Virus record (IMG/VR): IMGVR_UViG_3300050505_000421 | Coordinates: 26,579 to 90,578 of that record | Origin: a virus | Strand: one strand, 5' to 3' | DNA length: 64,000 nucleotides | In this document: piece after piece, positions 198-61,615 of the stretch | How the letters are laid out: every line of letters begins with the position of its first letter | How positions within the stretch are numbered: position 1 is the first letter of the stretch | Translations under genes and position numbers: made by a program | The notes under the pieces: model-generated | Told to the model about the DNA's origin: nothing | The model's input: the letters and a program-made list of their open reading frames with translations, nothing else | Database searches by the model: none

Positions 198-547
198 ACA
201 TCTTCTTCCTTGTGTTTGGTGGCTGGCTTCTTGGTGGCTTCCTGACGTACATCGCTGCATTCGGGCGGATGAACGATCAGGACATCGTGGTGTTCCTGGA
301 TGGCGCGCCCCTGGGGGGCGTGGCTGCGATGATCGCGGTGGCGTGGCCCTTCTTCGCCGGCGGGGAACTCCTGCATCGCGCTACCCGCAACTCCGAGGAG
401 GCGTGCCGCGAGATGATCTCCAAGCTCACCAAGTTGCAGAACCGACTCGATGGTCGGAACTCCAAGTACTTCACACGCCTCGTGGCCCGCGACCTCGCGA
501 TGTTCGAGAGGCGCCTTGCCGCCACCATCGCGAAGAAGGCGCAGTAG
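194..547 (+). CDS. hypothetical membrane protein
   Basis: GGAGG at 181-185, ATG 194; MNIFFLVFGGWLL... with two hydrophobic segments. Confidence 0.7.
   Translation: MNIFFLVFGGWLLGGFLTYIAAFGRMNDQDIVVFLDGAPLGGVAAMIAVAWPFFAGGELLHRATRNSEEACREMISKLTKLQNRLDGRNSKYFTRLVARDLAMFERRLAATIAKKAQ
202..218 (+). repeat. 17-bp element, orientation A (exact, inside CDS start)
   Basis: CTTCTTCCTTGTGTTTG. Confidence 0.9.
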
Positions 548-549
548 TC

Positions 550-783
550 GTGTCCGACGAGACACTGAACCAGCGCTGCGTCTGGATCGTCGAGCGCATC
601 GTTGAGTTCGACGGCATGGACACCGTTTGCAAGGTCATCGGCGCGTTCGACAGCGAGGCGAAGGCGGTCGCCGAGAGCCAGCGGTTGAACGAGCGCGAGG
701 AAGCCGACGCAACGAGCAAGATCGCAAAGTACCAGTACGGTTTCACTATCACGTACCACTACTACGGTGTGGGGTTGCAGTGA
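550..783 (+). CDS. hypothetical protein
   Basis: GTG start after upstream stop; packed operon. Confidence 0.6.
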   Translation: MSDETLNQRCVWIVERIVEFDGMDTVCKVIGAFDSEAKAVAESQRLNEREEADATSKIAKYQYGFTITYHYYGVGLQ

Positions 784-977
784 GTGTCTACTTGGAGGTG
801 GAAATCACCGTCGACACACTTGTGAGGGCCTGCGACGCCTTGACACCGGAAGACCTCATTGCCCTCATCAAAGAACTCGACGCGAAGCGAGAGGATTGGG
901 ACGTGACGTTGCTCCTGTGTGAGCACTTCGAGAAACTGCGCGAGATCTATAAGAGGGAAGAAGAGATGTGCAAATGA
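780..977 (+). CDS. hypothetical protein
   Basis: GTGA overlap, acidic helical ORF. Confidence 0.6.
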   Translation: MSVYLEVEITVDTLVRACDALTPEDLIALIKELDAKREDWDVTLLLCEHFEKLREIYKREEEMCK

Positions 978-1186
978 GCACCCTTGGACTGCTCGTCGGT
1001 CAATTGCTGGTGATTGCCGACTTCCAGGCTTCCGTCCGCGGGAGTATCCATGTTGTCGAAGGCGCAGCACAGGACCGCGGTGTACCTGACAACATCATCG
1101 AGCGTTTGCAACAGGTACAGCGCGACCTGAAACCTGTTGTCAGAGAACTTCGATCGATCGCGGATGAACTCGAAGAGGAGGGCTAA
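974..1186 (+). CDS. hypothetical protein
   Basis: ATGA overlap. Confidence 0.6.
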   Translation: MSTLGLLVGQLLVIADFQASVRGSIHVVEGAAQDRGVPDNIIERLQQVQRDLKPVVRELRSIADELEEEG

Positions 1187-1189
1187 ACC

Positions 1190-1714
1190 GTGGGCCCGAG
1201 CAGACAACACAACTTCGGGACGATCTGTCCGTTGAACTGCTGGGGGGAGGTACGCTGCCCGTGTCTCTGTCACGGGGCGCAAGCCTACGCCGGCGCACCG
1301 GAGTTTGTCGGTAAGTGGGCCAGCCGTGAGGGCGGCAGCCACCACACCCGGCTGGTCATCACGGATTCAGCGACCAGTGAAGTCCTGGGCAAGGCCCCAA
1401 TCGCCGTTGGCTTCGTCGCGTTGTCCCGCGAGGGTACCGTCGAGTCAGAGCTCTACATGATGAACCTCTTCAACGGATCGTCCGCCATGGCCGAGATCAT
1501 CAAGACCTTCAACCCCGTGATGCAGCGGATCGACCTCGAGTACGCGCCGTCCTGGGAGCCAATCTTCACGCCGGCGCAGCGCCTCGAGAAGGCCGCGCGC
1601 TGGGTCGCGACGGCCCTCCGGGGCTCGGACAAGGGCCGCGACCTCCAACTCGAGAAAGATCTCATTCAGGTCCTTGCGCACCGGGTCAAGTTCGAGGGGC
1701 TGTACTTGAAGTAG
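1190..1714 (+). CDS. hypothetical protein with N-terminal Cys cluster
   Basis: CPLNC..CPCLCHG motif; GAGGAGG upstream. Confidence 0.65.
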   Translation: MGPSRQHNFGTICPLNCWGEVRCPCLCHGAQAYAGAPEFVGKWASREGGSHHTRLVITDSATSEVLGKAPIAVGFVALSREGTVESELYMMNLFNGSSAMAEIIKTFNPVMQRIDLEYAPSWEPIFTPAQRLEKAARWVATALRGSDKGRDLQLEKDLIQVLAHRVKFEGLYLK

Positions 1715-1721
1715 GTCCTCA

Positions 1722-1738
1722 CTTCTTCCTTGTGTTTG
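1722..1738 (+). repeat. 17-bp element A (exact)
   Basis: 7 nt after stop 1714. Confidence 0.95.
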
Positions 1739-1755
1739 GTTCAGGAGCAACGGCG

Positions 1756-2094: not shown

Positions 2095-2112
2095 CGCGTT
2101 TTGTGTGTAGAC

Positions 2113-2129: not shown

Positions 2130-2135
2130 GATCAT

Positions 2136-4140: not shown

Positions 4141-4141
4141 A

Positions 4142-4678
4142 ATGCCGCGAACAGTGAAAGAAGTCTATCCGGAAGGGTGGAAAGAGCAGTACGACAGGAT
4201 CTCTCGGCTGGCGCGTAAGTTGGGCGTGCGTCTCTGCAAGCGTGTCGCCGCGGACAGCGCGCAGTGGAATGGACGTTCGATCGCGTTGTACGGCTTCGAA
4301 GGCGAACGCCTGTCACCGTCCGAGCTCATTCATGAGATCGCACACTGGCTGTGCGCCTCTCCTGCCCGCCGGCGCTTGTACGACTACGGTCTTGGGAGCG
4401 GGAACTTCTCCAACATGGCGGTGCGCCGTGTAGATGGGATAGACGATGATGAAGAGCAGGCCAGCCTGCTCGGGATCCTGTTCGAACGCGCCTTTGCCAT
4501 GAACTGGGAGCAGACCTGGGAGGACCACAACTGGGCGGGCCACAACCGGTGGGCGGAGTTGGGCGAATGCTCCTGGGAGGGGTACAGCAACTTCTGGTGC
4601 ACCCTCGCAACGTTATACAAGCGACGACTCGTCAGGCTAAACGGTACGCCACGAACACTCTTTTCTCCTTGTGTTTGA
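4142..4678 (+). CDS. EpmC (EF-P hydroxylase)-like HExxH metalloprotein
   Basis: HEIAHWLCASPARRRLYDYG closely follows the recalled EpmC/YfcM core HEISHWCIAGKARRELVDFG. Confidence 0.55.
   Translation: MPRTVKEVYPEGWKEQYDRISRLARKLGVRLCKRVAADSAQWNGRSIALYGFEGERLSPSELIHEIAHWLCASPARRRLYDYGLGSGNFSNMAVRRVDGIDDDEEQASLLGILFERAFAMNWEQTWEDHNWAGHNRWAELGECSWEGYSNFWCTLATLYKRRLVRLNGTPRTLFSPCV
4661..4677 (+). repeat. 17-bp element A (3 mismatches)
   Basis: TTTTCTCCTTGTGTTTG overlapping stop 4678. Confidence 0.8.
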
Positions 4679-4972: not shown

Positions 4973-4984
4973 AAGAGGTCTTCG

Positions 4985-11716: not shown

Positions 11717-11970
11717 TGAAAACCCTGTCGCAATTCGACATCGACCCTTGGACGATCATCACCGTGGACGGAAAGGTTCCGTCCAGTCCGAACGGCGCAA
11801 TCCACTGGGTCAATGGCCAGGAGGCAGCTGAAGTCGAAGCCAAGCAGTGGGGGGCTCTCCCTGTCTCCATCGCGCTTCTCGAAGCCTTCTATGCTGTGTG
11901 GTTGGAGACTGGTGACTACCAGCTAACGGCCGAAGAACCGAGTGAGACCAAGCACAAGGAAGAGAAGTGA
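11716..11970 (+). CDS. hypothetical protein
   Basis: TGATG overlap; ends inside motif B. Confidence 0.55.
   Translation: MKTLSQFDIDPWTIITVDGKVPSSPNGAIHWVNGQEAAEVEAKQWGALPVSIALLEAFYAVWLETGDYQLTAEEPSETKHKEEK
11949..11965 (-). repeat. 17-bp element B (2 mismatches)
   Basis: CAAGCACAAGGAAGAGA, 1 nt before GTG 11967. Confidence 0.9.
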
Positions 11971-12578
11971 CCTACCTCGAGATTGGCTTCGTGGCCGGCG
12001 GGGTGTTCTGGCTGGTCTGGAGCGTCGTCTACTTCTATCGCGCCCTGGTCTACAGCCCCTTCCCCCCGTCCCAACCGCTGGTGCGCCGCGTCGACCCTCA
12101 CCTCGAGATGCAGGACAACACGCCGACCGGCGGGAGTCCCTACCGCACGCCGCCTCCGCAGGCCCGCGACGAGACGCGGTTTCCCAAGAAGCCCTGTCGC
12201 CGGCGCTACTGGCTCTTCGGCCAGCGCCTCCACCAGTGGCATCAAGTGGTACACGATCACTGGAACATGTGGTGTTGGGACTGCGGTGTCACGGGCTACG
12301 CCAACCACACGCGACAGCACCGCAACTACCCACCCGAAGTTAGTGAAGGATCCACCATTGGATACGTGTTGGGTGTGGTCTCTTGGCGCTACGACGGCCC
12401 GCCACTCTGCTGTCGCAACTGCCGAGCTCTACACCGGGCGCCCGTCCTGCACGGCTGTCGTCCAGACTACGAGATCGCTGCTGTAAGCAGCTACCTATGC
12501 GTCTGCGGAAACAGGGACTGCACCGAATCCAACCCAGTCGCCCCGGTGCGGTTCCCCTGGGACACCTACTACAAATAG
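11967..12578 (+). CDS. membrane-anchored Cys/His-rich protein
   Basis: N-terminal TM, CWDC, CCRNC, CVC; bracketed by motif B and motif A. Confidence 0.7.
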   Translation: MTYLEIGFVAGGVFWLVWSVVYFYRALVYSPFPPSQPLVRRVDPHLEMQDNTPTGGSPYRTPPPQARDETRFPKKPCRRRYWLFGQRLHQWHQVVHDHWNMWCWDCGVTGYANHTRQHRNYPPEVSEGSTIGYVLGVVSWRYDGPPLCCRNCRALHRAPVLHGCRPDYEIAAVSSYLCVCGNRDCTESNPVAPVRFPWDTYYK

Positions 12579-12585: not shown

Positions 12586-12602
12586 TTTCTTCCTTGTGTT
12601 TG
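12586..12602 (+). repeat. 17-bp element A (1 mismatch)
   Basis: 7 nt after stop 12578. Confidence 0.95.
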
Positions 12603-14361: not shown

Positions 14362-14814
14362 ATGAAGACCGAGACGCTGAAGGAATTGCAGGTGGTAGCG
14401 AACGATCTAGTGCAACGCATCGCCACGATCATCGACACAACGCGGGTCGCTGAGTTCAAGAACATCGTCGACAAGACGTTCGCGTTGGAAGGGACGAACG
14501 CCGTCGTCGCCAGGGTCGACACCAATGGCGCGAAGAAGACGAAGGCGCCGACCGCCAACGGGAAGCGCGGGCGTCCGGCGTCGAAGGACTACGAGGGCCT
14601 TCTGCCGGGGCTGGCTGTGATGCTGATCCGGGCAGGGGAGAACGGCCTTGAGCCGGGCGCCATGGGCAAGGTGTTCCACATGACCCTCGGGCAGCGGCAG
14701 GCCTTCGTACGCCTGGCAACAACGCGTGGTGTTCTTCGTTCAACGGGCGCCAAGCGTGGCACGCGCTACTTCCCGGGACCCGGCGCCAAGGCGCGCGCCA
14801 AGGAAGCATCCTAA
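14362..14814 (+). CDS. putative nucleoid-associated/DNA-binding protein
   Basis: KRGRP AT-hook-like segment, C-terminal winged-helix-like LRSTGAKRGTRYF; GAGGAG RBS. Confidence 0.6.
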   Translation: MKTETLKELQVVANDLVQRIATIIDTTRVAEFKNIVDKTFALEGTNAVVARVDTNGAKKTKAPTANGKRGRPASKDYEGLLPGLAVMLIRAGENGLEPGAMGKVFHMTLGQRQAFVRLATTRGVLRSTGAKRGTRYFPGPGAKARAKEAS

Positions 14815-14831
14815 CTTCTTCCTTGTGTTTG
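14815..14831 (+). repeat. 17-bp element A (exact)
   Basis: Immediately after stop 14814. Confidence 0.95.
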
Positions 14832-14844: not shown

Positions 14845-15060
14845 GTGATGGAAGGTCACAAGAAGAAGTTCGCTAGTCTCACTCCGCGGGAGAAACAGAT
14901 CGTGGTGGCGATAGTGGACGGGAAGGCCACGAATCTGATCGCAGAGCAGTTGGGTGTCAGCGTGCAGACGGTGCGGACGCACGTGCAAAACACCTTCCGC
15001 AAGCTGGCGATGCACTCGCGGCTCGAGCTCGTCGCTGCGTGGCATCGGGCTCGCCCGTAG
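14845..15060 (+). CDS. LuxR/GerE-type HTH regulator
   Basis: LTPREKQIV...G..TNLIAEQLGVSVQTVRTHVQNTFRKL..HSRLELV. Confidence 0.9.
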   Translation: MMEGHKKKFASLTPREKQIVVAIVDGKATNLIAEQLGVSVQTVRTHVQNTFRKLAMHSRLELVAAWHRARP

Positions 15061-15709: not shown

Positions 15710-15900
15710 CCGCGATCGAGACGGCCTACGAACTGCAGCACGGCCAAGCCTCGCCGCGCGTGGTGTTCGAGGCTTGGTGCATCGCGGCGCGCCAAGCGGT
15801 CTCTGTGTATGACAAGGAAGTCTGTGTCGACCACGCGCGGCGCTATGCGCGGTACATGCTGGGGTGGGAGCGGTTTCACGAACGGATGACCCATGAGTGA
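15706..15900 (+). CDS. hypothetical protein
   Basis: Overlaps both neighbours. Confidence 0.55.
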   Translation: MTAIETAYELQHGQASPRVVFEAWCIAARQAVSVYDKEVCVDHARRYARYMLGWERFHERMTHE

Positions 15901-16594
15901 TGACGATCGCAACCCAGCCTTGTTCCTGCCGTTTGCCCTCGCGTCGGACGCGTCTGGACTGACGTCCGGGCGTTTGATTCGCATGGCCAAGCGCGGGTCG
16001 ATTACCACCCGTATGTTCGGGCCTGTAAGTTACGTCTACTGGCCAACCGTGGTCGCGGCGTTGCCGCCCCTAGTCGTGAAGATCCTGGAACTCTCCGCGC
16101 TCGTCCTTCCGGCGCGACGTACACACGCAGAACTACTGCAACTTCTGCACGGCAAGGGCTTCGTGGACATCACAGCGGCGCGCAGCGCGGTCGGCGCAGG
16201 GCGGAGTTCATTCTACCGCTGGATCAAGACGGGTAAGATCGCGATGTTCCGCCTCGACCGGAAGATCTTCCTGAAGTGGTCGGAGCTTCTGAAGGTTCTG
16301 GGCGCGTTCGCGGAGATCACGCACCTGGACCCCAAGAAACCGCCTGTGCCCAAGATCTTCGGCGCCGCTCGCCAACCGCAGGGCCCTCGTCTGATGCCGG
16401 GCTCCCTCATCGCCAAGCGGCTGCGTGCGGAAGGCTTCGTCTCCGTGCGTGAGGCCGCGCGGGAAATCGGGCTGGGTGAACACGTCCTGCGGAAGCTCGT
16501 GACAAAGGGCGAGGACGGGATTCGGTCTCGTCGCTGGGGCTCCTCTGTTCTGGTCAACCTGGAGTCCGTGCAACGGCTCGTTCAGGGCAAGTAG
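15893..16594 (+). CDS. triple Xis/MerR-like HTH DNA-binding protein
   Basis: Three units: LIRMAKRGSI, ITAARSAVGAGRSSFYRWIKTGKI, SVREAAREIGLGEHVLRKLV. Confidence 0.7.
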   Translation: MSDDDRNPALFLPFALASDASGLTSGRLIRMAKRGSITTRMFGPVSYVYWPTVVAALPPLVVKILELSALVLPARRTHAELLQLLHGKGFVDITAARSAVGAGRSSFYRWIKTGKIAMFRLDRKIFLKWSELLKVLGAFAEITHLDPKKPPVPKIFGAARQPQGPRLMPGSLIAKRLRAEGFVSVREAAREIGLGEHVLRKLVTKGEDGIRSRRWGSSVLVNLESVQRLVQGK

Positions 16595-16597
16595 TAA

Positions 16598-16614
16598 CTT
16601 CTTCCTTGTGCTTG
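16598..16614 (+). repeat. 17-bp element A (exact, C variant)
   Basis: 3 nt after stop 16594. Confidence 0.95.
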
Positions 16615-16646
16615 GTTGTACAAGGAGATGAGGCTCGACGAGAAGG

Positions 16647-16663
16647 CAAACACAAGGAGAGAG
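16647..16663 (-). repeat. 17-bp element B (3 mismatches)
   Basis: CAAACACAAGGAGAGAG, 4 nt before ATG 16668. Confidence 0.85.
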
Positions 16664-16667: not shown

Positions 16668-16856
16668 ATGGCGACGAAGGGGAAGGGCGGGAAGACGAAG
16701 GCAAAGGCTCGTACGAAGAACCGCAAGCAGTCGTGTGGCGTGTGCAACAAGGCGGGGCACAATTCGAGGCGCTGTCCAACGCGTAGCGCCCCGGCGAGTG
16801 TCACTGTGGAAGCGGACTACGACACTTCGTTCTTGTTTGATGATGACGACTTCTAG
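16668..16856 (+). CDS. basic CCHC zinc-knuckle protein
   Basis: CGVCNKAGHNSRRC = CX2CX4HX4C; Lys-rich N-terminus, acidic C-terminus. Confidence 0.75.
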   Translation: MATKGKGGKTKAKARTKNRKQSCGVCNKAGHNSRRCPTRSAPASVTVEADYDTSFLFDDDDF

Positions 16857-19360: not shown

Positions 19361-19377
19361 CAAGCACAAGGAAGAAG
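19361..19377 (-). repeat. 17-bp element B (exact)
   Basis: 1 nt before ATG 19379. Confidence 0.95.
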
Positions 19378-19696: not shown

Positions 19697-19987
19697 ATGA
19701 AGTTCTTCCTCTTCGCGGTCCTTCTCCTCGCCATCGCAGGTTGCGCTGCCAAGTCGCCCATCACGGTCACGCCAGCCTCGGTCACCATGACGCCGCCTCC
19801 GAACCCGTGGACCTACGACGACTCCACTGTCGACGTGAAGATCATGCACGACACGGTCTACGGTGTGACATGCTGGCTCTATGAGCGGCGCACGCCGGGC
19901 GGGGCCTACTCGTCCTCGATCTCCTGCGTGTCCGACGGGCTTCTGCGTCCTGGCGGTGAGCGCGTACCCGTGCGGCTTCTCCCGTAG
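19697..19987 (+). CDS. lipoprotein
   Basis: MKFFLFAVLLLAIAGC lipobox signal; TTCCCA-N17-TACCAT ends 6 nt before ATG. Confidence 0.75.
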   Translation: MKFFLFAVLLLAIAGCAAKSPITVTPASVTMTPPPNPWTYDDSTVDVKIMHDTVYGVTCWLYERRTPGGAYSSSISCVSDGLLRPGGERVPVRLLP

Positions 19988-19990
19988 TAA

Positions 19991-20007
19991 CTTCTTCCTT
20001 GTGCTTG
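19991..20007 (+). repeat. 17-bp element A (exact)
   Basis: 3 nt after stop 19987. Confidence 0.95.
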
Positions 20008-25369: not shown

Positions 25370-25410
25370 CGAACACAAGGAAGAAAGACACCACTTCTTC
25401 CTTGTGTTTG
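25370..25410. repeat. element B (25370-25386) then A (25394-25410), inverted pair
   Basis: CGAACACAAGGAAGAAA-GACACCA-CTTCTTCCTTGTGTTTG between stop 25367 and portal. Confidence 0.95.
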
Positions 25411-25434
25411 AGTCCCGGGCTACAATGACGGGCG

Positions 25435-34690: not shown

Positions 34691-34738
34691 CTTTCTCCTT
34701 GTGTTTGGTTGCAGGAATGTCCAAGCACAGGGAAGAAG
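34691..34738. repeat. element A (34691-34707) then B (34722-34738), inverted pair
   Basis: 4 nt after stop 34686; 18-position stem with 3 G:U and 1 mismatch. Confidence 0.92.
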
Positions 34739-39652: not shown

Positions 39653-40129
39653 ATGCCTACCGTCGGAACACCGCGCGAGCTTCACGGACGTTTCAAGTTC
39701 GTGGTCGAGATCGACGGCTTCGAGGCCGCCTTCTTCTCGAAGTGCTCGGCCCTCGTCTTCGAAGCCGCGATGATCCCGTACCGCGAGGGCGGTTCGCTCA
39801 TCCCGCACAAGATCCCGGGGCTGGTCACCTTCCCGCCCATCACGCTTGAGCGCGGCGTCTCCGTGAACGCGGACTTCCACGCGTGGGCGCTTGAGGTTGC
39901 CGACGCGTCGTCCGGTACGCCGCTCGGGACCGGGCAGTTGACGCCGGCGTACAAGCGCACCCTCTCGATCATCCAGCGCGACCGCGACAACTCCGTGATC
40001 CTGCGCTACGACCTGTTCGGCGTGTTCCCCACCAAGCTCGAGGCGGGCCAGTGGGACAACAACGCGAACGAGGTCACCATCGAAATGATGACTCTGGAGT
40101 ACGACTACTTCCAGCGCATTGTGGGCTAG
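39653..40129 (+). CDS. tail tube protein (T4 gp19-like)
   Basis: RFKFVVEIDG..F..CS.L...YREGG..HKIPG...ITLERG. Confidence 0.9.
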   Translation: MPTVGTPRELHGRFKFVVEIDGFEAAFFSKCSALVFEAAMIPYREGGSLIPHKIPGLVTFPPITLERGVSVNADFHAWALEVADASSGTPLGTGQLTPAYKRTLSIIQRDRDNSVILRYDLFGVFPTKLEAGQWDNNANEVTIEMMTLEYDYFQRIVG

Positions 40130-40142: not shown

Positions 40143-40181
40143 TCTTCTTCCTTGTGGTTGGTTGAACCGCAGGAAAGAAGA
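40143..40181. repeat. element A (40144-40160) paired with degenerate B (40165-40181)
   Basis: TCTTCTTCCTTGTGGTT-GGTTG-AACCGCAGGAAAGAAGA, 16/17 pairs incl. 2 G:U and a compensatory G-C. Confidence 0.85.
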
Positions 40182-40201
40182 AGTTCAAAGGAAGGTTCGA
40201 C

Positions 40202-44246: not shown

Positions 44247-44582
44247 ATGCCGCCCTTTCCGGGATCGCGATACCTGCCAGGCGGCGTGCTCCAGCGCGAC
44301 GTGGACGGCATCTCGCTACTTCCTGTGCGAGAGCCGTTTCTATTCGAGGAGCGCCCGGACAACACACTGCACCGGGTCATCTCGGGTGACACGCTCGAAA
44401 ACCTCGCCGAGCAGTTCTACAACAACGCACTTCTCTTTTGGGTCATCGCCGACTTCCAGCCCGAACCGCTACTGGATCCTTCGGAGGATCTCGAGACCGG
44501 CTCCATTCTAGTTCTACCGTCCGTCGAGTACGTCAACTCCAAGGTGCTCGGAAGCCCTGAAGGCGCCCGAGTAATCTTGTGA
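44247..44582 (+). CDS. LysM-domain baseplate protein (gpX-like)
   Basis: HRVISGDTLENLAEQFY...WVIADF...GSILVLP. Confidence 0.85.
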   Translation: MPPFPGSRYLPGGVLQRDVDGISLLPVREPFLFEERPDNTLHRVISGDTLENLAEQFYNNALLFWVIADFQPEPLLDPSEDLETGSILVLPSVEYVNSKVLGSPEGARVIL

Positions 44583-44583: not shown

Positions 44584-44600
44584 CTTCTTCCTTGTGCTTG
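44584..44600 (+). repeat. 17-bp element A (exact)
   Basis: 1 nt after stop 44582. Confidence 0.95.
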
Positions 44601-47173: not shown

Positions 47174-47190
47174 CAAGCACAAGGAAGAAG
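47174..47190 (-). repeat. 17-bp element B (exact)
   Basis: Directly abuts ATG 47191. Confidence 0.95.
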
Positions 47191-47610
47191 ATGCCGGGTC
47201 TACCGATTGAAGGAAAGCAGAGCTTCTTGGGCTACGGCCTGGTTCTTCCGTTCGCCCGAACGGGTGGCGCGGACTTTCGCGCCGCGGGTGGGGCTACGCT
47301 CGTTTCCTCGTGCGTGAGTCAGATCGTTGGAACGGTTCAAGGAGAGTTGCGCTGGCGCCCTTCTTTCGGCTTGGACGCGGAGAAACTTCGGCACAAGAAC
47401 ATGAACGAAGGGCTCGAGGAACTCGGACGGCAGAAGGTCGCGGACGCGGTGAGCACTTGGGAGCCGCGTGTCGCAATCATCGATGCCGAAGTGCTTCGAG
47501 AGCAAACAGAGCGGACGCTGCGCATCCGAATCGTGTGGACGATCGAGGCCCGGAACAACCCGCGCAACCGCGTGCTCATTGATCCGATCACGCAGGAGGT
47601 GCCGATCTAA
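47191..47610 (+). CDS. baseplate wedge gp25/gpW-like
   Basis: GELRWRPSFG...WEPRV. Confidence 0.85.
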   Translation: MPGLPIEGKQSFLGYGLVLPFARTGGADFRAAGGATLVSSCVSQIVGTVQGELRWRPSFGLDAEKLRHKNMNEGLEELGRQKVADAVSTWEPRVAIIDAEVLREQTERTLRIRIVWTIEARNNPRNRVLIDPITQEVPI

Positions 47611-50126: not shown

Positions 50127-50825
50127 ATGGCGGAGATCGACTGGGCAGTGATGGACGACGTTGTTTCGTCGTCCTCGATTCTGAGCGGTGTGACTGCGGG
50201 TGCGACCACACCACCGAACGGGGGTGGAACGTTCTTCTTCGGTTTCAACTCGCTGGTCGCGGACTTGGGCGTCGCGGGGCGCTACGTCGATCTCACGAAC
50301 TTCAACCCGTACGTGAAGGGGATCTCCGTCCGTGCGGCGTTGAAGCGTGGCGTGAGTGCCGGCGTGACTGGGTTCGCTCCAATGCTGTGGGCGGGGATCC
50401 AGTCGAACCCGCCGAGCGTGAACGATCCGGGCTACCTGCTGTTCCTTTCGGACGACGAGCCGCACTCCATCGTATTGAAGAAGGGCGCCCCTTCCGGTGC
50501 GATGGAAGCCGTGGGCTCCGGTGTTCTAGCCGTGTCGTCCGCCACCTACTTGGCGGACACGTGGCTCCACCTCCGGATGGACGTGATCGCCAACCCGAAC
50601 GGAGACGTGGTGATCAATGTCTTTCAATCGGATCTGAACCTGCACGCGGTGACCACACCCACTTGGGACGCCATTCCTGGCATGGCGCAGGTGATCGACG
50701 ACTCCCTGCGTGTGCTTACAGGGTCTGACCCGTTGACCGGCGGCTTCGCAGGCTTTGCCTTTCAATCCGCCGCACTCAACCGACGTAGCTACGTGGACCA
50801 TTTTGCCGTACAACGCCAAATTTGA
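50127..50825 (+). CDS. structural protein (beta-sandwich-like)
   Basis: ACAAGGAG RBS; baseplate region. Confidence 0.7.
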   Translation: MAEIDWAVMDDVVSSSSILSGVTAGATTPPNGGGTFFFGFNSLVADLGVAGRYVDLTNFNPYVKGISVRAALKRGVSAGVTGFAPMLWAGIQSNPPSVNDPGYLLFLSDDEPHSIVLKKGAPSGAMEAVGSGVLAVSSATYLADTWLHLRMDVIANPNGDVVINVFQSDLNLHAVTTPTWDAIPGMAQVIDDSLRVLTGSDPLTGGFAGFAFQSAALNRRSYVDHFAVQRQI

Positions 50826-50828
50826 TGA

Positions 50829-50845
50829 CTTCTTCCTTGTGCTTG
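50829..50845 (+). repeat. 17-bp element A (exact)
   Basis: 3 nt after stop 50825. Confidence 0.95.
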
Positions 50846-54393: not shown

Positions 54394-56190
54394 ATGAGCG
54401 ATCGAGTTGACTATTTTTTCGGCCAGCTTGTGACTGAGGCAGAGCTCGACTTCGCACAGTCGCAGCTCGAAGCCGCCGATCGCAACTACGCGCTGGACAC
54501 CGACGCGGCTCTGGTAGACCTCTCGGCCTCCCCGAACATCGACGGCGGCATTCACAAGGCGATGGCCACTTCGTTCGTGGGCTTCACGGTGACCGTGACT
54601 GGTCCTGGTGTGGCCTACGACCACCTTGGTCGGCGCATCCCGCTCGCGGCGAACACGGACGTATCCATCACAGCGACCGGCGAAACGGCGATCGGAGCCG
54701 GTGGAACGCCGACGGGGGGCTCGGCCACGGATCCCGGCGTTGGACTCGAGCGCTGGATCTCCCTCTTCGTTCGATTCGACCGCCTCCTGTCCGACCCGCG
54801 CGTGGACGCGAACAGTGTCCCGATCAACTTCCAGCAGGCAGAGAGCTTCGTCTTCAAGGTCACGATGGGCACGGCGGCGGGGAGTCCGACGAAGCCCCCG
54901 CTCGAGTCCGGCATGCTCCTACTGGCCGACTTCCGCCGGTCGGACGCGGCGATTCTTCAGATGGACCTCACGCGGCGCCACGATTGGCTCGTGCGTGAGG
55001 ACGGTACGACGTACCCCGTTCACACCATGCGGATGGGGAACGCGCGTGCAGCCATTGCGAAGGTGCTCGAGTTGATCGACAAGCACGTCGCAGGGACAGC
55101 GGACCTGCACGCGGCAGCGGCCATCAACTACGCCGGCGGTGGCACCTGGGCAGACGCTACGACCAACCCCGCGACGACGGTCGAAGCGCAACTCGACAAG
55201 GTCATCTCGGATCTCGCTTCGACCGGTGGCAGCGACGGCACCGCGAAGATCGGCGGTAAGGCGACGACGGGCTCATTGAACACAACGACCGGCGCCACCT
55301 CGACGACTGCCACGACGCTGTTCGCACAGATCGGACAACTCTTGGCCGGCATCAACGGCCGCCTACAGCGCGGCGGCGATTCCATGGCCGGCAACATCAC
55401 GACCGACGGTACGACACGGAACCTCGGCGCGACCGGCGCCGCGGGAAACCGCTTCAACATCTTCGGGAACAACCTCAACGTGCTCGCAGTGAGTGCCGAC
55501 ATCCCGACGGACGGAACGGCTCGCGCTCTCGGCGCGACGGGGGCGGCAGGAAACCGCTTCGGTATCTTCGCGAATGCGATCGACGCTGCTGGCGACGTGC
55601 TCCCGGAAGCGGATGGCACACGGAACCTGGGTTCCGGCGCCAAGTCTTGGGCGAACGTGGTCTCGGTCGGCTTCCAGTACGACCCCGTTCTCACCAAGGT
55701 CTGTTCGGTTGGATCCATCAACGGGCGCCCTCAGATCGATGCTGCTGGTGTGAGTGACTGGGTCGCCCCTGCCATTCTCACCACGGATACGACGCGGCAG
55801 CACTGGCGGACAACGTCAGCCCTCGGCGCCGGGACCAAGGGCGGTACGCTGAGCATCCCAATCAGCAGCCTTCCGGACAGCGCTACGATCACCGGCATCA
55901 GCGTCGTTTGGATTGGTCAGGGCGGTGGTTCGCCGGACACCCTGTTCTACGGTGCCTGGCTCGAGGCCAACGGTACGAGCAACACACGGTCCGCGATCGG
56001 GACGGCGAGCTCCACGGCGGGGACTGCGGCCATCGTCTCCACGTCCATCTTCAGCGGATCCGTGTCCTACGACCGCGACGCCGTCTCCATCATCGTAGAT
56101 TTGCAGGTCAGCCAAGCCGGCGCGGGTGCTGCCGACGTACGCGTCTACTGCGTCAACGTCACCTACACCACCGCCTCTCCGCAGGTGTAA
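54394..56190 (+). CDS. baseplate-anchored tail fibre protein
   Basis: DRVDYFFGQLVTEAEL N-terminus; three ~34-aa DGT.RNLG repeats; beta-sandwich C-terminus. Confidence 0.8.
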   Translation: MSDRVDYFFGQLVTEAELDFAQSQLEAADRNYALDTDAALVDLSASPNIDGGIHKAMATSFVGFTVTVTGPGVAYDHLGRRIPLAANTDVSITATGETAIGAGGTPTGGSATDPGVGLERWISLFVRFDRLLSDPRVDANSVPINFQQAESFVFKVTMGTAAGSPTKPPLESGMLLLADFRRSDAAILQMDLTRRHDWLVREDGTTYPVHTMRMGNARAAIAKVLELIDKHVAGTADLHAAAAINYAGGGTWADATTNPATTVEAQLDKVISDLASTGGSDGTAKIGGKATTGSLNTTTGATSTTATTLFAQIGQLLAGINGRLQRGGDSMAGNITTDGTTRNLGATGAAGNRFNIFGNNLNVLAVSADIPTDGTARALGATGAAGNRFGIFANAIDAAGDVLPEADGTRNLGSGAKSWANVVSVGFQYDPVLTKVCSVGSINGRPQIDAAGVSDWVAPAILTTDTTRQHWRTTSALGAGTKGGTLSIPISSLPDSATITGISVVWIGQGGGSPDTLFYGAWLEANGTSNTRSAIGTASSTAGTAAIVSTSIFSGSVSYDRDAVSIIVDLQVSQAGAGAADVRVYCVNVTYTTASPQV

Positions 56191-56194: not shown

Positions 56195-56235
56195 TTTCTT
56201 CCTTGTGTTTGGGCTAACCAAGCACAAGGAAGAAA
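56195..56235. terminator. motif A/B hairpin between convergent genes; probable bidirectional terminator
   Basis: TTTCTTCCTTGTGTTTGG-GCTAA-CCAAGCACAAGGAAGAAA, 18-bp stem with one G:U; no U tract. Confidence 0.6.
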
Positions 56236-56238
56236 GAT

Positions 56239-56901
56239 TCAAACCCCACGGACGAGGAGCCCGGCGAGATCGCGGTGGTCGGCGCCGATCGTTGAGGAGG
56301 TAACACTGGAAGTTCTCTGCCAGTGAATCTCGACGAGGTCGCCTTCAACGAGGTCTGGAGTTGTGTAGTTGATGGAGACGTTAACGGCTTCGACATCGTC
56401 CGTTCCAGTTGGGTACCGCTTGGTCTTTATGTCGCCGTTGATTCTGAGTGTTACCGTGGCGAGAACACGCTTCCCGAGTTCGAGTGCGTAGACGGACGTA
56501 GAGAAACTGAAGTTCCATTTCCCGGCACCGTTCGCGGGAATGGTCAATTGCATTCCAGGGATGAGCTCGTCTGTGAATACAGCTACATTCGTAACTGCGT
56601 CCTCGGCGTGCACATTCAAACTGACGGGGGCCGCGTCGAATTCGCCTCCGATAGCGCGAATGAGCGAGTCGAGGAAACCCGGCACATGGTAGGCCGCGCC
56701 TGTCGTCTTTCGGTCGCCTCGAACGATGATCGGTGCGCCGGGTGTGCCGATGCCTGTTTGAAGGTCCGGATCTCCACTCGCGTCCGCGATGGCCTGCAGG
56801 CGCGCTTTGATGGCGTCGCTCGTGCTCATGTCTTCCGGAGGCGGAGGGCCGCCTGAAGTTGTGTCGCCGGGCCAGTAACCAAGCGGCCAGTAGCCTGCCA
56901 T
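56239..56901 (-). CDS. structural protein with C-terminal beta-sandwich
   Basis: ORF in coupled minus-strand run. Confidence 0.7.
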   Translation of the reverse strand: MAGYWPLGYWPGDTTSGGPPPPEDMSTSDAIKARLQAIADASGDPDLQTGIGTPGAPIIVRGDRKTTGAAYHVPGFLDSLIRAIGGEFDAAPVSLNVHAEDAVTNVAVFTDELIPGMQLTIPANGAGKWNFSFSTSVYALELGKRVLATVTLRINGDIKTKRYPTGTDDVEAVNVSINYTTPDLVEGDLVEIHWQRTSSVTSSTIGADHRDLAGLLVRGV

Positions 56902-56907
56902 TGTTGT

Positions 56908-58026
56908 TTAGCTTCCATTCAGTACGATGGCGGTGCGGTTTCCAGTCGCTGTATCCACCGTGGCTGTGATTCGATTCGTTGTTCCGTTGCGCGCCTTGAA
57001 GTGAATCGTGGTCGTGGTCCCACCGTCCGACACTCCTGCGAGTGCAGCCAGGATGATTCGCATGAACTCCGCGAATGTTTTACTGTCCTCGAGCACGAAT
57101 GCAAACACAGCGGAGGCAATCGCAGCGAGTGCGTCGACGGCGAGTGCGTCTGCGTCTACGGCTCCAGTCGCGATGCTCGCAGCAGTGATGCCGCCTGCGG
57201 CTACAGACCCAACGCTTCCGGTCACGCTGGCGACGCTGCCCGTGACCGATCCCTGCACGCTCGCGACGCCCTGCCCGAAGCTGCCTGCCGTGACGTGGCC
57301 GGCTCGCGCCTCGTCCCACACCTTGTCGGCGATCGTGTCCTCTTCACCAGACGTCAGGGCATAGCCGGTCTTGTCCCCGACGACCTGTGCGTTCGCGTCC
57401 ACTCGGTTCGAGATGAGTGCGTTCGGTGTTCCGCCGGCGTTGTCCGTCAGCCAGCGGAGCAGCATCGACTGCACGTAACCGTTCGTCGTGAGGGCCGCTG
57501 GCGCAGCTGCAAGCCAGAGCTTCACGTCGCTCGGGACCTTACCGGAAGAGAGAGCGTCAGGAGCAGCGGTGAGCCAGAGCTTGATGTCAGCGGGGACTTT
57601 ACCGGAGGAGAGCGCGTCTGGCGTCACGGTGAGCCACTTGTTCACATTGACGTTCTGGTCCGCGGTGATCTCCACGCCGCCGGTGGCGTCCACGTCGATC
57701 CCGCGGCCCGAGACGTTTGGGTAAGCAAGGTCGTCTTCTAGGCGCGCATGAACACGGAATTGGAGGTTGATCTGCTTCGTCCCGGGCGCGGAGAACGACA
57801 GGGAAAGGATTCCGAGCGTGTCCGTATGCGAACTGGAGAGGGTGATTCCGTACCAACCCAGGCTGGCCTCCGTCACAGTGACCGTCATTGCGTTGATTGT
57901 GGTGGATCCGCCCTTGCTGATGCTCTTCGTCCAATCGCCTGTCACGAGGTCCGTGACCGGGTCGCCGTTCGCGTCGTACGCAAAGAACAGCACATCCAAG
58001 GCCGTCGATTGCTTGAGGGGATACAT
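56908..58026 (-). CDS. virion structural protein with 20-aa repeats
   Basis: KLWLTAAPDALSSGKVP repeats; C-terminal ILAALAG...NRITATVD..GNRT. Confidence 0.8.
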   Translation of the reverse strand: MYPLKQSTALDVLFFAYDANGDPVTDLVTGDWTKSISKGGSTTINAMTVTVTEASLGWYGITLSSSHTDTLGILSLSFSAPGTKQINLQFRVHARLEDDLAYPNVSGRGIDVDATGGVEITADQNVNVNKWLTVTPDALSSGKVPADIKLWLTAAPDALSSGKVPSDVKLWLAAAPAALTTNGYVQSMLLRWLTDNAGGTPNALISNRVDANAQVVGDKTGYALTSGEEDTIADKVWDEARAGHVTAGSFGQGVASVQGSVTGSVASVTGSVGSVAAGGITAASIATGAVDADALAVDALAAIASAVFAFVLEDSKTFAEFMRIILAALAGVSDGGTTTTIHFKARNGTTNRITATVDTATGNRTAIVLNGS

Positions 58027-58029
58027 GGC

Positions 58030-58239
58030 TCAGAACACCCTGTCCCAGACGCGGCCGAAAACGTGGGCGAATATGGCGCGCGCCTGTTGTCCCACGCCGA
58101 TTGGGCTCTTGAGTGGAAGCTGCCACTTCGTCTCGCCTGTACTCGGCAGCGATTCCGTATCGCTGTAGACACGGGTATTCAACTGGTCATGCATTCCCAT
58201 GTGCATTAGGGATGGACCCGGGCCGGCGAACTTGATCAT
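58030..58239 (-). CDS. hypothetical protein
   Basis: ATGA overlap with upstream stop. Confidence 0.55.
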   Translation of the reverse strand: MIKFAGPGPSLMHMGMHDQLNTRVYSDTESLPSTGETKWQLPLKSPIGVGQQARAIFAHVFGRVWDRVF

Positions 58240-59405
58240 GACCACACCACCTCTCCGCCGCCCGTCAACGTGAACGGGAGCGCGGCCGGTCCCCACGCAA
58301 TCATCGAGAGACAAGCGCCGTCGAGAATACGCTCTCCGGAAGCGACTCCGATGATCGTGTCCATCATTGTCGGATCGTGTGCGATCGGCAGGGGGAGAAT
58401 TGCCAGGGGCCGCGCGAGCACCCAAGTGATTGTACCCGTATTGTTCGCGCTGAACGTGCGGTTGTCGATCAACTGGACGCCGCAGTCCCCAACCGCGAGC
58501 GGGAGGAACGGCCCCCAGACGAGCGTGGCGGCTGCGGTGCAAGGCGCGATTATCCGGGCGCCGATCGTCGTCGTCGGTGTGGCAGCAGCCGTGATTGTGG
58601 CCACTGTCGGAGTCGTCGGCATGGACTGCAGCGTGTTTCCGTCCTGATCCGTATACTGGAATTGCGTTAGGTTAGCCGCAGTAGCACCCGTCAGAGATTC
58701 AACGCAGACCATCGGCTTCAGGCCGTCGCCGGTCGCTGTCCCGGCTGTTCCGAGATAGCGTGCGGCCGGTAGCGTGTTCGTCATGACGACGTTTGCGTTG
58801 GTAATCGTTCCCGCTTCGTACGTTAAGACTCGATCGTAGAGGATGATCGTCGTGAAGGAGTTGCCGGCAGCACCGCTGGAGTCGGTGAGCCCGCCCCAAA
58901 AGAAGGACAAGTGTTTTGTCTCGGCGCTCTTGTTCCCGTCGTGCCAGATCGCGCCGGCTTCTGTATCATCGTGGGGCTTCGCCGTGTGTGCCGTCCCGCC
59001 GTACGCGCCCGCGCCGGGCGCTCCGCCAACCGGCCAGAGGTCGTACCAGTTGCCCGTCGTCGTGGTCCCGGTCGCCGTCTTCTGAAACTGGAACGGGAAG
59101 CGCTTGCCCTGGCGCTGCGCCTTGCGAACGCTCTCGTAGGTTGGGAACCCCGCGAGGTCCAGGGTCGGCCGCCGTCGCTCGCCGGGCATCTCGCGCCGCC
59201 ACCAGACACCGCGCCCGGGCATCCACCAGGGATCGGAGAACACCCACCCGAGCCGCTGCCCGCCGTGGAACACCGGCACGGGCGCCTGGTCGAGCCCGGC
59301 GCCGGCGAGAAGCGCCGCGCGCCACGCCCGGTCCTCTGCGCTCGGTCCGCCGCGCGACTTCCGCGGGAGCCCGACGAGGGCGGGGGCCTGTGCCTCGACC
59401 TGCAT
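58236..59405 (-). CDS. virion structural protein, paralog 2 (389 aa)
   Basis: TGATG overlap; aligns end to end with 59800-60969. Confidence 0.8.
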   Translation of the reverse strand: MQVEAQAPALVGLPRKSRGGPSAEDRAWRAALLAGAGLDQAPVPVFHGGQRLGWVFSDPWWMPGRGVWWRREMPGERRRPTLDLAGFPTYESVRKAQRQGKRFPFQFQKTATGTTTTGNWYDLWPVGGAPGAGAYGGTAHTAKPHDDTEAGAIWHDGNKSAETKHLSFFWGGLTDSSGAAGNSFTTIILYDRVLTYEAGTITNANVVMTNTLPAARYLGTAGTATGDGLKPMVCVESLTGATAANLTQFQYTDQDGNTLQSMPTTPTVATITAAATPTTTIGARIIAPCTAAATLVWGPFLPLAVGDCGVQLIDNRTFSANNTGTITWVLARPLAILPLPIAHDPTMMDTIIGVASGERILDGACLSMIAWGPAALPFTLTGGGEVVWS

Positions 59406-59797
59406 CAGGCGGCGTCCCCGTCGCGCACGAAGCCGTGCCAGTTGCAGCCACCCACCAGTTGGACGGACGCCGCGTCCGGTCCAACGAACGTCAGGTCGTC
59501 GATGCCGGTCCCGGCCGGGCGCCAGCGTCCAGGTTTCGGCTGCGTGTCGTCTGGAACACCGCGGTCGGCGAACCAGCAGATCACCGCGTGGACGCCAACG
59601 TTCGAGCGCCCGTTCGCCTCGAAACACTTTGGGCAGAGGAACCAAAGCCCCTGGGCCTCGGAGAGGTTCTCCACCGGCACGTAGCGCTGCCTGGGTCCCG
59701 TGATCTCCTCACGATCACCGTCCGGACGAACGCGCACCCACGTCGTGATGTACTCCTCGATTCGGTAGAAATGGGCTTCGAGATCGCGTAGTCGCAT
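59405..59797 (-). CDS. DUF6527-like Cys/His protein
   Basis: FLCPKC...W...DLTF...GGCNWHGFVRDG. Confidence 0.6.
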   Translation of the reverse strand: MRLRDLEAHFYRIEEYITTWVRVRPDGDREEITGPRQRYVPVENLSEAQGLWFLCPKCFEANGRSNVGVHAVICWFADRGVPDDTQPKPGRWRPAGTGIDDLTFVGPDAASVQLVGGCNWHGFVRDGDAA

Positions 59798-59799
59798 CG

Positions 59800-60969
59800 T
59801 CAGCTCCACGCCACGGAGCCGCCGCCGTTCGCGGTGAACGCCGTCGTCGTCGGGACGAACGCGTAGAGCGCGAGCGCGGCGCCGTCGATGATGCGCTCGA
59901 GGGAGGTGACCCCGTGTACTGAGTTGATCACTGTGGAGTCCCCCGCCGTCGGGCACGGGATCACAGCAAGCGGGCGCGCCAGGATCCACGTGATGGTCCC
60001 CGTGTTGTTCGCGCTCCACGTGCGGTTGTCGATCAGGAACACGCCTCCGTCGCCGACGGCCAGCGGGATGAACGCGCCCCACGGGAGCGTCGCCCCCGAC
60101 GTTGCGGGACATACCACACGTGCCCCAATCGTCGCCGTCGCCGCTGTTGCTGCTGTGATGTGGGAAACAGTCGGCGTCGTGGGCATCGACTGAAGGGTGT
60201 TTCCTGATTGATCCGTATACTGAAATTGCGTTAGGTTCGATCCGGTAGCACCAAGGTTCGTCTCGACGCAACACATTGGCTTCATCCCGCCACCCGTGGC
60301 GGTACCTTCCGTGCCGAGGTACCGAGTGGCTGGCAGTGTGTTGGTCAAAACAACGTTGACGTTCGAGATCGTCGAGGCCTCGTACGTGAGGACGCGGTCG
60401 TAGAGCACGATCGTCGGGTTCTGCGCGCTGCACATCCCCCAGACCATCGTGAGGTGCTTCGTCGCCGTGCTCTTGTTCCCACCATGCCAGATCGTCCCCG
60501 CCGTTGTGTCATCGATCGGCTTGGCGGTGTGCGCCGTCCCGCCGAACACCCCGGGGTTCTGGCCCGACGCCCAGAGATCGTAGAAGTTCCCGGCGAGGGA
60601 GGCCGTCGTTTGAGTCTTCGACCACGGCCCGAAGTTGAACTTCTTACCCGTGGTATTCGCTTCCACGATTTTATCGAACGTCGGGAAGCCGGCGAGGTCC
60701 ATCGTCGGCTTGCGGCGCTCGCCCGGGAACTCGGGACGCCACCAGACGCCGCGCGCCGGCGCCCACCACGGGTCCGAGATCACCCAACCAATCCTTCGGC
60801 CGTCGAGGTAGACCGGAAGCGGCCACTGGTCGCAACCGCGGGCAGCGGCGAGCGCCCCACGCCAGGCTGTGTCCTGCTCACTCGGGGACGATCGCGACTT
60901 TCGAGCGAGTCCGATCAAACCCGGAGCCTTGGACTCCACACCCACATCGACTGTGTTGAATCCGGCCAT
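59800..60969 (-). CDS. virion structural protein, paralog 1 (389 aa)
   Basis: AG.FYDLW...LYDRVL...QYTDQSGN motifs; paralog of 58236-59405. Confidence 0.8.
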   Translation of the reverse strand: MAGFNTVDVGVESKAPGLIGLARKSRSSPSEQDTAWRGALAAARGCDQWPLPVYLDGRRIGWVISDPWWAPARGVWWRPEFPGERRKPTMDLAGFPTFDKIVEANTTGKKFNFGPWSKTQTTASLAGNFYDLWASGQNPGVFGGTAHTAKPIDDTTAGTIWHGGNKSTATKHLTMVWGMCSAQNPTIVLYDRVLTYEASTISNVNVVLTNTLPATRYLGTEGTATGGGMKPMCCVETNLGATGSNLTQFQYTDQSGNTLQSMPTTPTVSHITAATAATATIGARVVCPATSGATLPWGAFIPLAVGDGGVFLIDNRTWSANNTGTITWILARPLAVIPCPTAGDSTVINSVHGVTSLERIIDGAALALYAFVPTTTAFTANGGGSVAWS

Positions 60970-60981
60970 GCGATCTCCAGT

Positions 60982-61248
60982 CTACTGCGGCGGCGTGCGG
61001 TGGCGCCAGCCAGGAATGGACGGAGCAACGGCGGAATCACGTGTCCCGTACAGAACAAGCTCTGGAATAGCGGCGGCCGTCCAACTGCACGCGCGTACCG
61101 CCAAGCCGAGCTCGCCTGCGCGGCGAACAGCCTTCGCCTTCAAGTCTTCCCGGTCCCTGCCCTGCGTGTCACGAACCTCGACCGTCTTCGTGACCTGCGA
61201 GCGCCCATCAACTCGAGCGACTTCGAAGATCTTCACTTTTGCTTGCAT
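60982..61248 (-). CDS. hypothetical protein
   Basis: Fills gap in minus-strand run. Confidence 0.6.
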   Translation of the reverse strand: MQAKVKIFEVARVDGRSQVTKTVEVRDTQGRDREDLKAKAVRRAGELGLAVRACSWTAAAIPELVLYGTRDSAVAPSIPGWRHRTPPQ

Positions 61249-61251
61249 GAC

Positions 61252-61581
61252 TCAGCCCTTCCTGAAACCGGGACAGTCTTCGTAGGCTGTGACCTTTGTG
61301 CGCGCAGCCAGGACGTAGGGACAAAGAGCGCGCTCTCCGATAGGCGGTACAGCGAGACCGTTCTGCGCGCCCCACTTGCGCAACCAACTGCAGGATCCGT
61401 CGTCCCCAAGACGCTGGCAAAGACGGCGCACCGGCATCTGTTCTCTGATCTCGTTCAGTAGTTTCTGGCTCGGGATGATACCCTGCGCCCATAAAGCTAA
61501 GGCGCGGTCGACAAGGCGCCGGCCTTGCCCGTCCGCCCGGCACTTCCCCCGGGCGTCCTGAAGCCACTCCACCAGTTCCAT
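61252..61581 (-). CDS. hypothetical Cys-containing protein
   Basis: MELVEWL...; upstream part of the track ORF overlaps a plus-strand gene so start placed at 61581 (uncertain). Confidence 0.55.
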   Translation of the reverse strand: MELVEWLQDARGKCRADGQGRRLVDRALALWAQGIIPSQKLLNEIREQMPVRRLCQRLGDDGSCSWLRKWGAQNGLAVPPIGERALCPYVLAARTKVTAYEDCPGFRKG

Positions 61582-61598
61582 CGAACGCAGGATAGCAT

Positions 61599-61615
61599 CT
61601 CTTTCCTTGTGTTTG
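61599..61615 (+). repeat. 17-bp element (2 mismatches); reads as B for the minus-strand block
   Basis: CTCTTTCCTTGTGTTTG; minus strand CAAACACAAGGAAAGAG upstream of first minus-strand gene. Confidence 0.85.

Follow-up and report, generated by a model that had tools for sequence, protein, structure and literature searches.

The stretch of viral DNA analysed here (the window, 64,000 nt in length) comprises bases 26579–90578 of the 137,073-bp IMG/VR virus record IMGVR_UViG_3300050505_000421, which is estimated to be 84% complete and represents an uncultured soil phage, a large myovirus, from rhizosphere metagenomes. Gene prediction with a self-trained codon model yielded 209 genes covering 90% of the record; those in the window include the genes of the portal, prohead protease, tail tube, baseplate hub and gp25-like baseplate wedge proteins, and a short asymmetric element of 17–19 nt recurs about 45 times in the gaps between the genes. 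Its forward form (A) reads CUUCUUCCUUGUG... in mRNA, and its reverse complement (B), (AC)CAARCACAAGGAAGAAG, includes the Shine-Dalgarno core AAGGA. Deposited phages gave no nucleotide match, and the portal protein shares about 30% identity with those of known phages. An initial annotation of the window, made from the sequence alone, had described a 17-bp element with 23 copies, 15 in orientation A and 8 in orientation B, marking non-coding gaps across the genome, and had taken it for a candidate undescribed regulatory system, acting in RNA as a structural element or in DNA as a site for a protein or for recombination.

The exact 17-mer CTTCTTCCTTGTGYTTG has 11 matches in the window, each of them where the initial annotation had placed it, and none in any of 100 shuffles. 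With up to three mismatches allowed, there are 23 matches, against a shuffle mean of 0.17 and a maximum of 2. Twenty-two of these had been annotated before, the sole addition being a weak intragenic match at 43904 (three mismatches); the copy given earlier as 28590 is intragenic, matches in the core only and fails the search at this threshold, so the tally for the window becomes 14 forward copies, 8 reverse copies and one partial copy. The whole record contains 42 copies at two mismatches or fewer (26 forward, 16 reverse), and 35 of them lie mostly within the 10% of the record that is non-coding (binomial p ~1e-28), which bears out the earlier description of the element as a mark of the gaps. 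An alignment of 48 copies contains 17 strongly conserved positions (1–2.3 bits each) and two weaker ones, the AC ahead of CAAR... in the reverse-complement reading, with no information content outside these 19 nt.

The same sequence, at 100% identity and collinear over the copies, was assembled from at least three rhizosphere metagenomes by several independent assemblers; since the independent assemblies agree to this extent, adapters and misassembly, named in the initial annotation as possible sources of the signal, are excluded. An Rfam scan of the window gave no match. Motif scans of IMG/VR, metagenome contigs and 185,579 species genomes revealed only single chance matches among the matches listed (at least 120 in each of the last two scans), the one exception among the exact-motif matches being another fragment of the same phage. 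A multi-copy repeat of a host chromosome, of the repetitive extragenic palindrome (REP) type, is absent from the first 120 matches listed for genomes and from the first 120 listed for metagenomes. An origin as a host repeat or adapter was rejected on the basis of the matches listed, a multi-copy host repeat being made improbable rather than fully excluded, and the view of the element as genome-wide and phage-specific is retained.

Relative to the local genes, 17 copies have the A orientation and 22 the B orientation, and the two follow separate positional rules. On the coding strand, B ends 0–7 nt upstream of a start codon in 14 of 15 copies (two mismatches or fewer), the fifteenth ending at 15 nt; this spacing recurs on either strand and in each of the three arms of the genome, and the AAGGA of B lies 5–12 nt upstream of the start codon. 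ATG is the start codon behind B in 12 of the 15 cases, compared with 59% across all genes. Genes lacking the motif have comparable CAAGGAG-type sites, and the conserved CAAGCAC part of B exceeds what pairing with 16S rRNA accounts for. By its position relative to the starts, B is shown as a putative translation-initiation leader. The core of B also agrees with the CsrA/RsmE consensus, ACANGGANG; no CsrA was found in the phage. Three tRNA genes have a B copy 4–28 nt downstream, followed by a start codon (tRNA Gln, Leu and Thr); tRNA 3' processing would yield mRNAs with a B leader at the 5' end. A tRNA-Ile gene adjoins a B–A hairpin at genome 101704–101739. The loci of these tRNA genes are genome 4880–4953, 10449–10539, 129833–129907 and 101742–101892, all outside the window.

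The A form, where it is on the coding strand, starts 0–14 nt past the upstream stop codon, and its end lies 7–53 nt upstream of the next start. Three copies are exceptions to this rule, one exact copy within a membrane protein gene and two others, at genome 3199 and 115666, which lie behind strong GC-rich hairpins and upstream of starts. Abutment on the stop codon was considered as a signal of its own and rejected, the bias being non-significant once about 12 nt are reserved for the next ribosome site; nearness to the stop is not counted separately because it is expected if that site needs room. A role of A as the ribosome site of antisense genes was also rejected, the opposite strand having no consistent start codon after A. 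The distance of A from the next start, the two copies behind GC-rich hairpins, the AT content of A, which is the most AT-rich stretch within the gaps, and the lack of prominent sigma-70-type promoters in the window would all suit a phage-specific promoter or a part of one; in the arrangement A-loop-B, read-through RNA would mask the ribosome site, which would stay accessible in RNA begun past A. Phage T4 uses such masking in read-through transcripts to control genes e, soc and 49. A promoter is, however, quite improbable here, as there is no conservation on either side of the 19 nt, copies occur at convergent junctions with no following gene (56195, and likewise in the relative R introduced below), and nearly all left-arm copies would fire antisense. 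A phage RNA polymerase and sigma-70 region 2 were not found in the 84%-complete record, in which the 71-aa product of 14845–15060 matches region 4 / GerE. Terminator and promoter scans of the whole window gave results at or below the shuffle expectation.

Protein searches identified three more distant lineages, L039, R and Q, in which the element occurs; none of the relatives found covers the early region, and the repeat is lacking in the contigs L288–L290, whose capsid identity is about 50%. L039, whose portal is 65% identical, has one A copy, 4 nt past a stop and 26 nt upstream of an amidase gene. The relative R (contigs L295/L297, IMG/VR 3300048080_000580; sheath 60% identical) is fully syntenic over 20 kb with a protein identity of 28–62%, and it has the element at six of six comparable orthologous sites (see the table). 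The relative Q (L298; sheath 52% identical) has the hairpin of the tube gene. The part invariant across the phages is CCTTGTGCTTG / CAAGCACAAGG, and it is mostly not accounted for by the Shine-Dalgarno function.

The comparison with R also bears on the suggestion that the copies are sites of recombination or mobility, whether shuffling boundaries, crossovers for an inversion of the minus-strand block or REP-like repeats, which would owe their identity to spread and gene conversion and not to a function. Inverted copies arranged as B...A bracket several genes or gene groups, including the minus-strand block 56219–61615, the A copy of L039 lies at a point where gene content differs from that of the present phage (one possible boundary case), and neighbouring copies have the same T or C variant; agreement between B...A partners in this variant, 4 of 6, is non-significant. 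Against this, four metagenomes contain no alternative joints at any copy, contigs cross 56195–56235 and 61599 in the reference arrangement, and R keeps the gene order of the late region and the six sites despite about 45% protein divergence, with its minus-strand block bracketed likewise. There are no flanking duplications and no conserved flanks; no integrase was found, and no search was made for transposases or REP-associated tyrosine transposase (RAYT) genes. Inversion or shuffling at the copies is not supported, since alternative joints are absent and R is collinear, and this explanation is regarded as very improbable.

Adjacent A and B copies make up pairs that are predicted to fold into hairpins in the transcript. 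Four pairs in the window are clear (16598/16647, 25370/25394, 34691/34722 and 56195/56219), a fifth (40144 with 40166–40183) has a degenerate B arm, and two further pairs lie in the genome outside the window. The predicted stems, 16–23 bp long and positioned straight after stop codons, are to be compared with the approximately 20 bp of near-perfect double-stranded RNA of an RNase III site, and their loops are 2 to 32 nt long. For ten A/B pairs from three phages, the predicted folding energies range from −21 to −35 kcal/mol, the transcribed strand being more stable than its complement in nine of the ten.

Nine A-first hairpins from the three phages, a small and partly paralogous set, were aligned over a stem of 19 pairs. 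In this alignment, 89% of the cells are paired and changes on both sides are found at 8 of the 19 pairs; for four of five measures, 2–10 of 500 shuffles match the observed values, and pairing falls to about 50% when the partner is shifted by 1–3 columns. RNAalifold independently predicts the same stem with six covarying pairs. Departures on one side only comprise 13 U·G cells versus 4 C·A cells. The compensations include the Y/R position of the tube hairpin, which is G:C here and C:G in R, a change from U-A to C-G in one hairpin of R, and one additional base per arm in Q, TTT opposite AAA. Compensatory changes of this kind are those of a conserved structured RNA hairpin, as which the A/B pairs are predicted.

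The main alternative to an RNA stem is a 17–19-bp asymmetric double-stranded DNA site for a phage or host DNA-binding protein acting genome-wide on transcription, in the manner of stoperators or of the extended start-associated sequences of Cluster K, the Shine-Dalgarno role then being a by-product of packing an AAGGA-containing site into short gaps. We regard it as less likely but give it real weight, especially for the forward copies that have no partner. The spacing of its half-sites would range from 2 to 32 nt in the pairs, the double changes leave the genome's own consensus yet preserve pairing, the G·U wobbles favour the transcribed strand, the distance from B to the start is fixed, and no integrase was found in the record, hence no sign of lysogeny to accompany a genome-wide repressor. 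Because of the covariation, the G·U bias, the strand stability and the variable loops, an RNA stem is favoured over a dimeric DNA site.

With a probability of roughly one half, the element is an RNA-level, two-faced intercistronic element, and this reading is ranked above a DNA–protein site because the B copies and the A/B pairs point to RNA; among the options of the initial annotation, the RNA structural one is thus favoured for these copies by the Shine-Dalgarno leader spacing and the covarying hairpins, and the recombination one is not supported. The element would work mainly in mRNA, as punctuation between cistrons. B would serve as a leader for translation initiation on the coding strand, and where A and B are adjacent the transcript would fold into a 16–23-bp hairpin directly past the stop codon. 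Such hairpins may be RNase III-type processing sites, may stabilise 3' ends or may act as attenuators. In any of these roles they would adjust the yields of neighbouring gene products relative to one another and, where the B arm serves the next gene, would mask its ribosome site.

Several observations weigh against an RNA-level element, and a number of them concern the A copies without an adjacent B (solo A). Solo A copies are the better conserved, 10 of 17 being exact, with a mean of 0.65 mismatches versus 1.5 for B (p = 0.009). Their complement is not found within 200 nt on either side more often than in random windows, and RNAduplex pairs them with their own downstream initiation region no better than with those of 180 other genes; in view of this lack of excess complementarity, neither a local hairpin nor a cis anti-Shine-Dalgarno role explains solo A, and the latter was rejected on the RNAduplex comparison together with the missing partner within 200 nt. 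The same core is maintained in both orientations. Homogenisation of inverted repeats could mimic the compensation seen in nine partly paralogous sequences. The A/B stems are followed by no U-tract or T-run and none is picked by the terminator scan, and the combination of GC-rich hairpin and U-tract that characterises an intrinsic terminator is not found in them. No RNase III gene was found in the phage, and no RNA run containing this phage was found.

Some of these points are what the double-stranded DNA site would lead one to expect. It would explain why solo A copies, having no RNA partner, match the consensus best, because B copies, being tuned as ribosome sites too, would drift; the core CCTTGTGCTTG / CAAGCACAAGG is held in solo copies, in both orientations and in several phages, and the flanks co-vary within a genome, GGT/ACC here and ATC/GAT in R. 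The 17-bp inverted repeats of Cluster K mycobacteriophages were judged to be DNA sites, and their left arm is nearer to the consensus, as here (PMC3203893). Copies of the element adjoin the genes of two proteins with helix-turn-helix (HTH) motifs, a GerE/LuxR-type protein of 71 aa (14845–15060; the match to region 4 / GerE mentioned above) and a weakly matching HTH_17 / excisionase-like protein (15893–16594), which would be the first choice for a DNA reader, should there be one. Searches of the 84%-complete record revealed no integrase, CsrA, sigma-70 region 2, T7-type RNA polymerase, RNase III or cold-shock protein.

The solo A copies appear to be under selection themselves, as one of them is kept at the orthologous site of R and they match the consensus best. 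We infer that B leaders are their most likely partners, in trans or over a distance; alternatively, whatever factor recognises the conserved core may recognise them too. The cis pairing with the downstream initiation region, rejected above, is suggestive in a few cases only, namely 14815, 19991 and 44584 together with its orthologue in R. An extended version of this idea, in which solo A copies are built-in antisense segments of polycistronic mRNAs and pair over long range or in trans with about 20 B leaders, forming a protein-free genome-wide RNA–RNA network that masks ribosome sites or marks them for double-strand cleavage depending on the transcripts present or translated, is unlikely. Tandem in-frame stops stand directly 5' of some A copies, TAGTAA at 16592–16597 and 19985–19990 and TGATGA at 50823–50828, and R has a TAGTAG tandem stop at one such site.

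Table. Copies of the element and associated features in the window, with the corresponding sites of the relative R
Feature	Position	Strand	Context	Site in R
A, exact	202–218	+	In codons 3–8 (IFFLVFG) of predicted + gene 194–547, membrane protein	
Gene	194–547	+	Own GGAGG 9 nt upstream of ATG	
Solo A, exact	1722–1738	+	7 nt past stop of 1232–1714; 17 nt upstream of ATG 1756	
B, exact	2113–2129	−	Shine-Dalgarno leader on + mRNA; end 6 nt upstream of ATG 2136	
A orientation, degenerate (3 mismatches)	4661–4677	+	Overlaps stop codon of 4154–4678	
B, 2 mismatches	11949–11965	−	End 1 nt upstream of GTG 11967	
Solo A, 1 mismatch	12586–12602	+	7 nt past stop of 11967–12578	
Solo A, exact	14815–14831	+	Adjoins TAA of 14362–14814; 13 nt upstream of GerE/LuxR-type HTH gene 14845–15060	
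A–B hairpin	16598–16663	+	A 16598–16614 exact, 32-nt loop, B 16647–16663 (3 mismatches); 3 nt past tandem stop of HTH gene 15893–16594; B arm 4 nt upstream of ATG 16668	
B, exact	19361–19377	−	2 nt past a stop; 1 nt upstream of ATG 19379	
Solo A, exact	19991–20007	+	3 nt past tandem stop TAGTAA of 19697–19987; 19 nt upstream of ATG 20027	
B-loop-A hairpin	25370–25410	+	7-nt loop, −27.7 kcal/mol; 2 nt past stop of 24780–25367; ends 24 nt upstream of portal start; B arm serves no start	
Core-only partial copy CCCTTGTGCTTG	28594–28607	+	Inside prohead protease gene; given earlier as 28590; probably non-functional	
A-loop-B hairpin	34691–34738	+	After head-tail adaptor-like gene 33628–34686; sense fold −25.3 vs antisense −15.0 kcal/mol; 4 G·U pairs	
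Hairpin, A + degenerate B	40144–40183	+	After tail tube gene 39653–40129; A with G at Y position; degenerate B arm (40166–40183) bears compensating C	A–B hairpin at 3' site of tube gene
Solo A, exact	44584–44600	+	1 nt past stop of small gene 44286–44582; upstream of baseplate hub gene	Solo A, 2 nt past stop
B, exact (solo)	47174–47190	−	Adjoins ATG of gp25-like baseplate wedge gene 47191–47610	B upstream of gp25
Solo A, exact	50829–50845	+	3 nt past tandem stop TGATGA of 50127–50825 (232-aa gene)	Full A–B hairpin
A-loop-B hairpin	56195–56235	+	19 bp, −32.1 kcal/mol; after fibre gene, at convergent stops of 54394–56190 (+) and 56239–56829 (−)	A–B hairpin
B for minus strand, 2 mismatches	61599–61615	+	Head of minus-strand gene block; ATG of short upstream open reading frame follows	B + ATG of short upstream open reading frame

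The gene 11967–12578 lies between the copies at 11949 and 12586, with B ahead of its start codon and A past its stop codon. The A copy at 14815 is partly complementary to CACAAGAAGAAG, which corresponds to codons 5–8 of the gene 14845–15060. At the head of the minus-strand block, the ATG directly after B (61599–61615) opens a short upstream open reading frame (61497–61615, minus strand), which has 34 codons here and in R consists of no more than ATG-GTG-TAG; the true first gene of the block (~61252–61581), missed by the gene caller, starts 17–20 nt beyond this ATG and has no ribosome site of its own. The portal gene lacks a Shine-Dalgarno sequence in the stretch before it (25410–25437) and has a TACAAT hexamer 8 nt upstream of its ATG, and its transcript may therefore be leaderless.

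Other genes of the record deserve mention. The gene 16668–16856, whose ribosome site is the B arm of the pair 16598/16647, encodes a lysine-rich protein of 62 aa with one CCHC zinc-knuckle-like motif, for which Pfam and PHROG gave no match. Intein-like inserts of the LAGLIDADG type are present in the large subunits of both ribonucleotide reductase and terminase (window 21609–24728; genome 124896–127529), and the prohead protease (Peptidase_S78_2; 27575–29152) carries a fused 2'-5' RNA ligase / 2H phosphoesterase domain, as it does in L039. In R, gp25 and baseplate J are separated by a LAGLIDADG homing-endonuclease-like gene (L297 10281–10949) that is absent here. A second repeated word, GAGTGCGGCG(A/T)GG, has 10–20 occurrences genome-wide, mostly outside the window, and probably reflects a repeat in coding sequence.

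The intercistronic RNase III sites of phage T7, and the enterobacterial REP sequences and bacterial interspersed mosaic elements (BIME), also consist of long stem-loops that lack a U-tract and follow stop codons; they function in RNA processing, in the protection of 3' ends and in differential expression, and REPs are found either alone or in inverted pairs. The A/B hairpins resemble them in being long stem-loops without a U-tract right after stops in polycistronic mRNAs, but neither of those types is known to serve also as a ribosome-binding leader, as the present element does for about 20 genes, and their single arms are not known to be conserved alone. The stoperators of Cluster A mycobacteriophages are asymmetric sites of 13–14 bp in temperate phages; the prophage repressor binds them, and their orientation relative to transcription is constant. 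Like them, the present element is an asymmetric site found dozens of times in the short gaps between genes, genome-wide; unlike them, it is used in both orientations, as the initial annotation had pointed out, and with separate positional rules, and the 84%-complete record yielded no tyrosine integrase. On both counts it departs from a stoperator.

Repeated intergenic stem-loop cassettes in a large myovirus recall the promoter early stem-loop (PeSL) cassettes of T4-type phages, which combine a strong sigma-70-like promoter with a stem-loop, mediate the shuffling of genes and are located in hyperplastic regions of the genome (Arbiol et al. 2010, PMC2839356). In the present phage, however, no sigma-70-type promoter is seen, the promoter scan of the window placing none at the copies, and the sites lie in a conserved late operon and are positionally stable between relatives.

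The closest comparison is offered by the start-associated sequences (SAS) of Cluster K mycobacteriophages and the extended SAS (ESAS) that accompany them. ESAS are 17-bp imperfect inverted repeats with a variable spacer, located before gene starts, whose consensus varies among related groups, and in all of this they resemble the A/B pairs; their arms are separate from SAS, do not support RNA pairing and were judged to be DNA sites (PMC3203893), whereas the right arm of the present hairpins doubles as a ribosome site, and their two arms show covariation and admit G·U wobbles. SAS themselves are 13 bp long (GGGATAGGAGCCC), have a single orientation and do not extend beyond the half of the genome with the non-structural genes (Pope et al. 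2011, PMC3203893); they are group-specific, with 11–19 copies per genome, and contain a Shine-Dalgarno core near starts (PMC3203893). Their function is still unverified according to a 2025 survey (PMC12699233). The likeness to the present element is considerable, since both are short, asymmetric, group-specific repeats with a Shine-Dalgarno core that end a few nucleotides before starts, and show a bias to ATG starts and conservation past 16S rRNA pairing. SAS are absent from host genomes, and the present element likewise gave only single chance matches among the genome matches listed. The differences are that the present element is 17–19 nt long, is unrelated in sequence, occurs in the late structural operon as well, and has about 40% of its copies as the exact reverse complement after stop codons; the Shine-Dalgarno core and the end within a few nucleotides of starts agree with SAS, and the single orientation, GGGATAGGAGCCC and membership of Cluster K are not found.

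The term undescribed regulatory system, used initially, is too strong, B having the features by which SAS were defined (PMC3203893). B shares the positional features of SAS and differs in sequence, length, operon and, above all, orientation; the element is therefore a start-associated repeat whose exact complement is used too. The large uncultured soil myovirus thus provides an independent, unrelated example of the SAS type, known since 2011, with three added handles: the complement is conserved alone, both forms pair with covariation, and the sites are stable at about 55% protein identity. This gives concrete short sequences and a simple comparative contrast between an RNA reader and a DNA reader, and, should it be true that the solo antisense copies pair with the leaders, they would represent a new phage way to coordinate translation.

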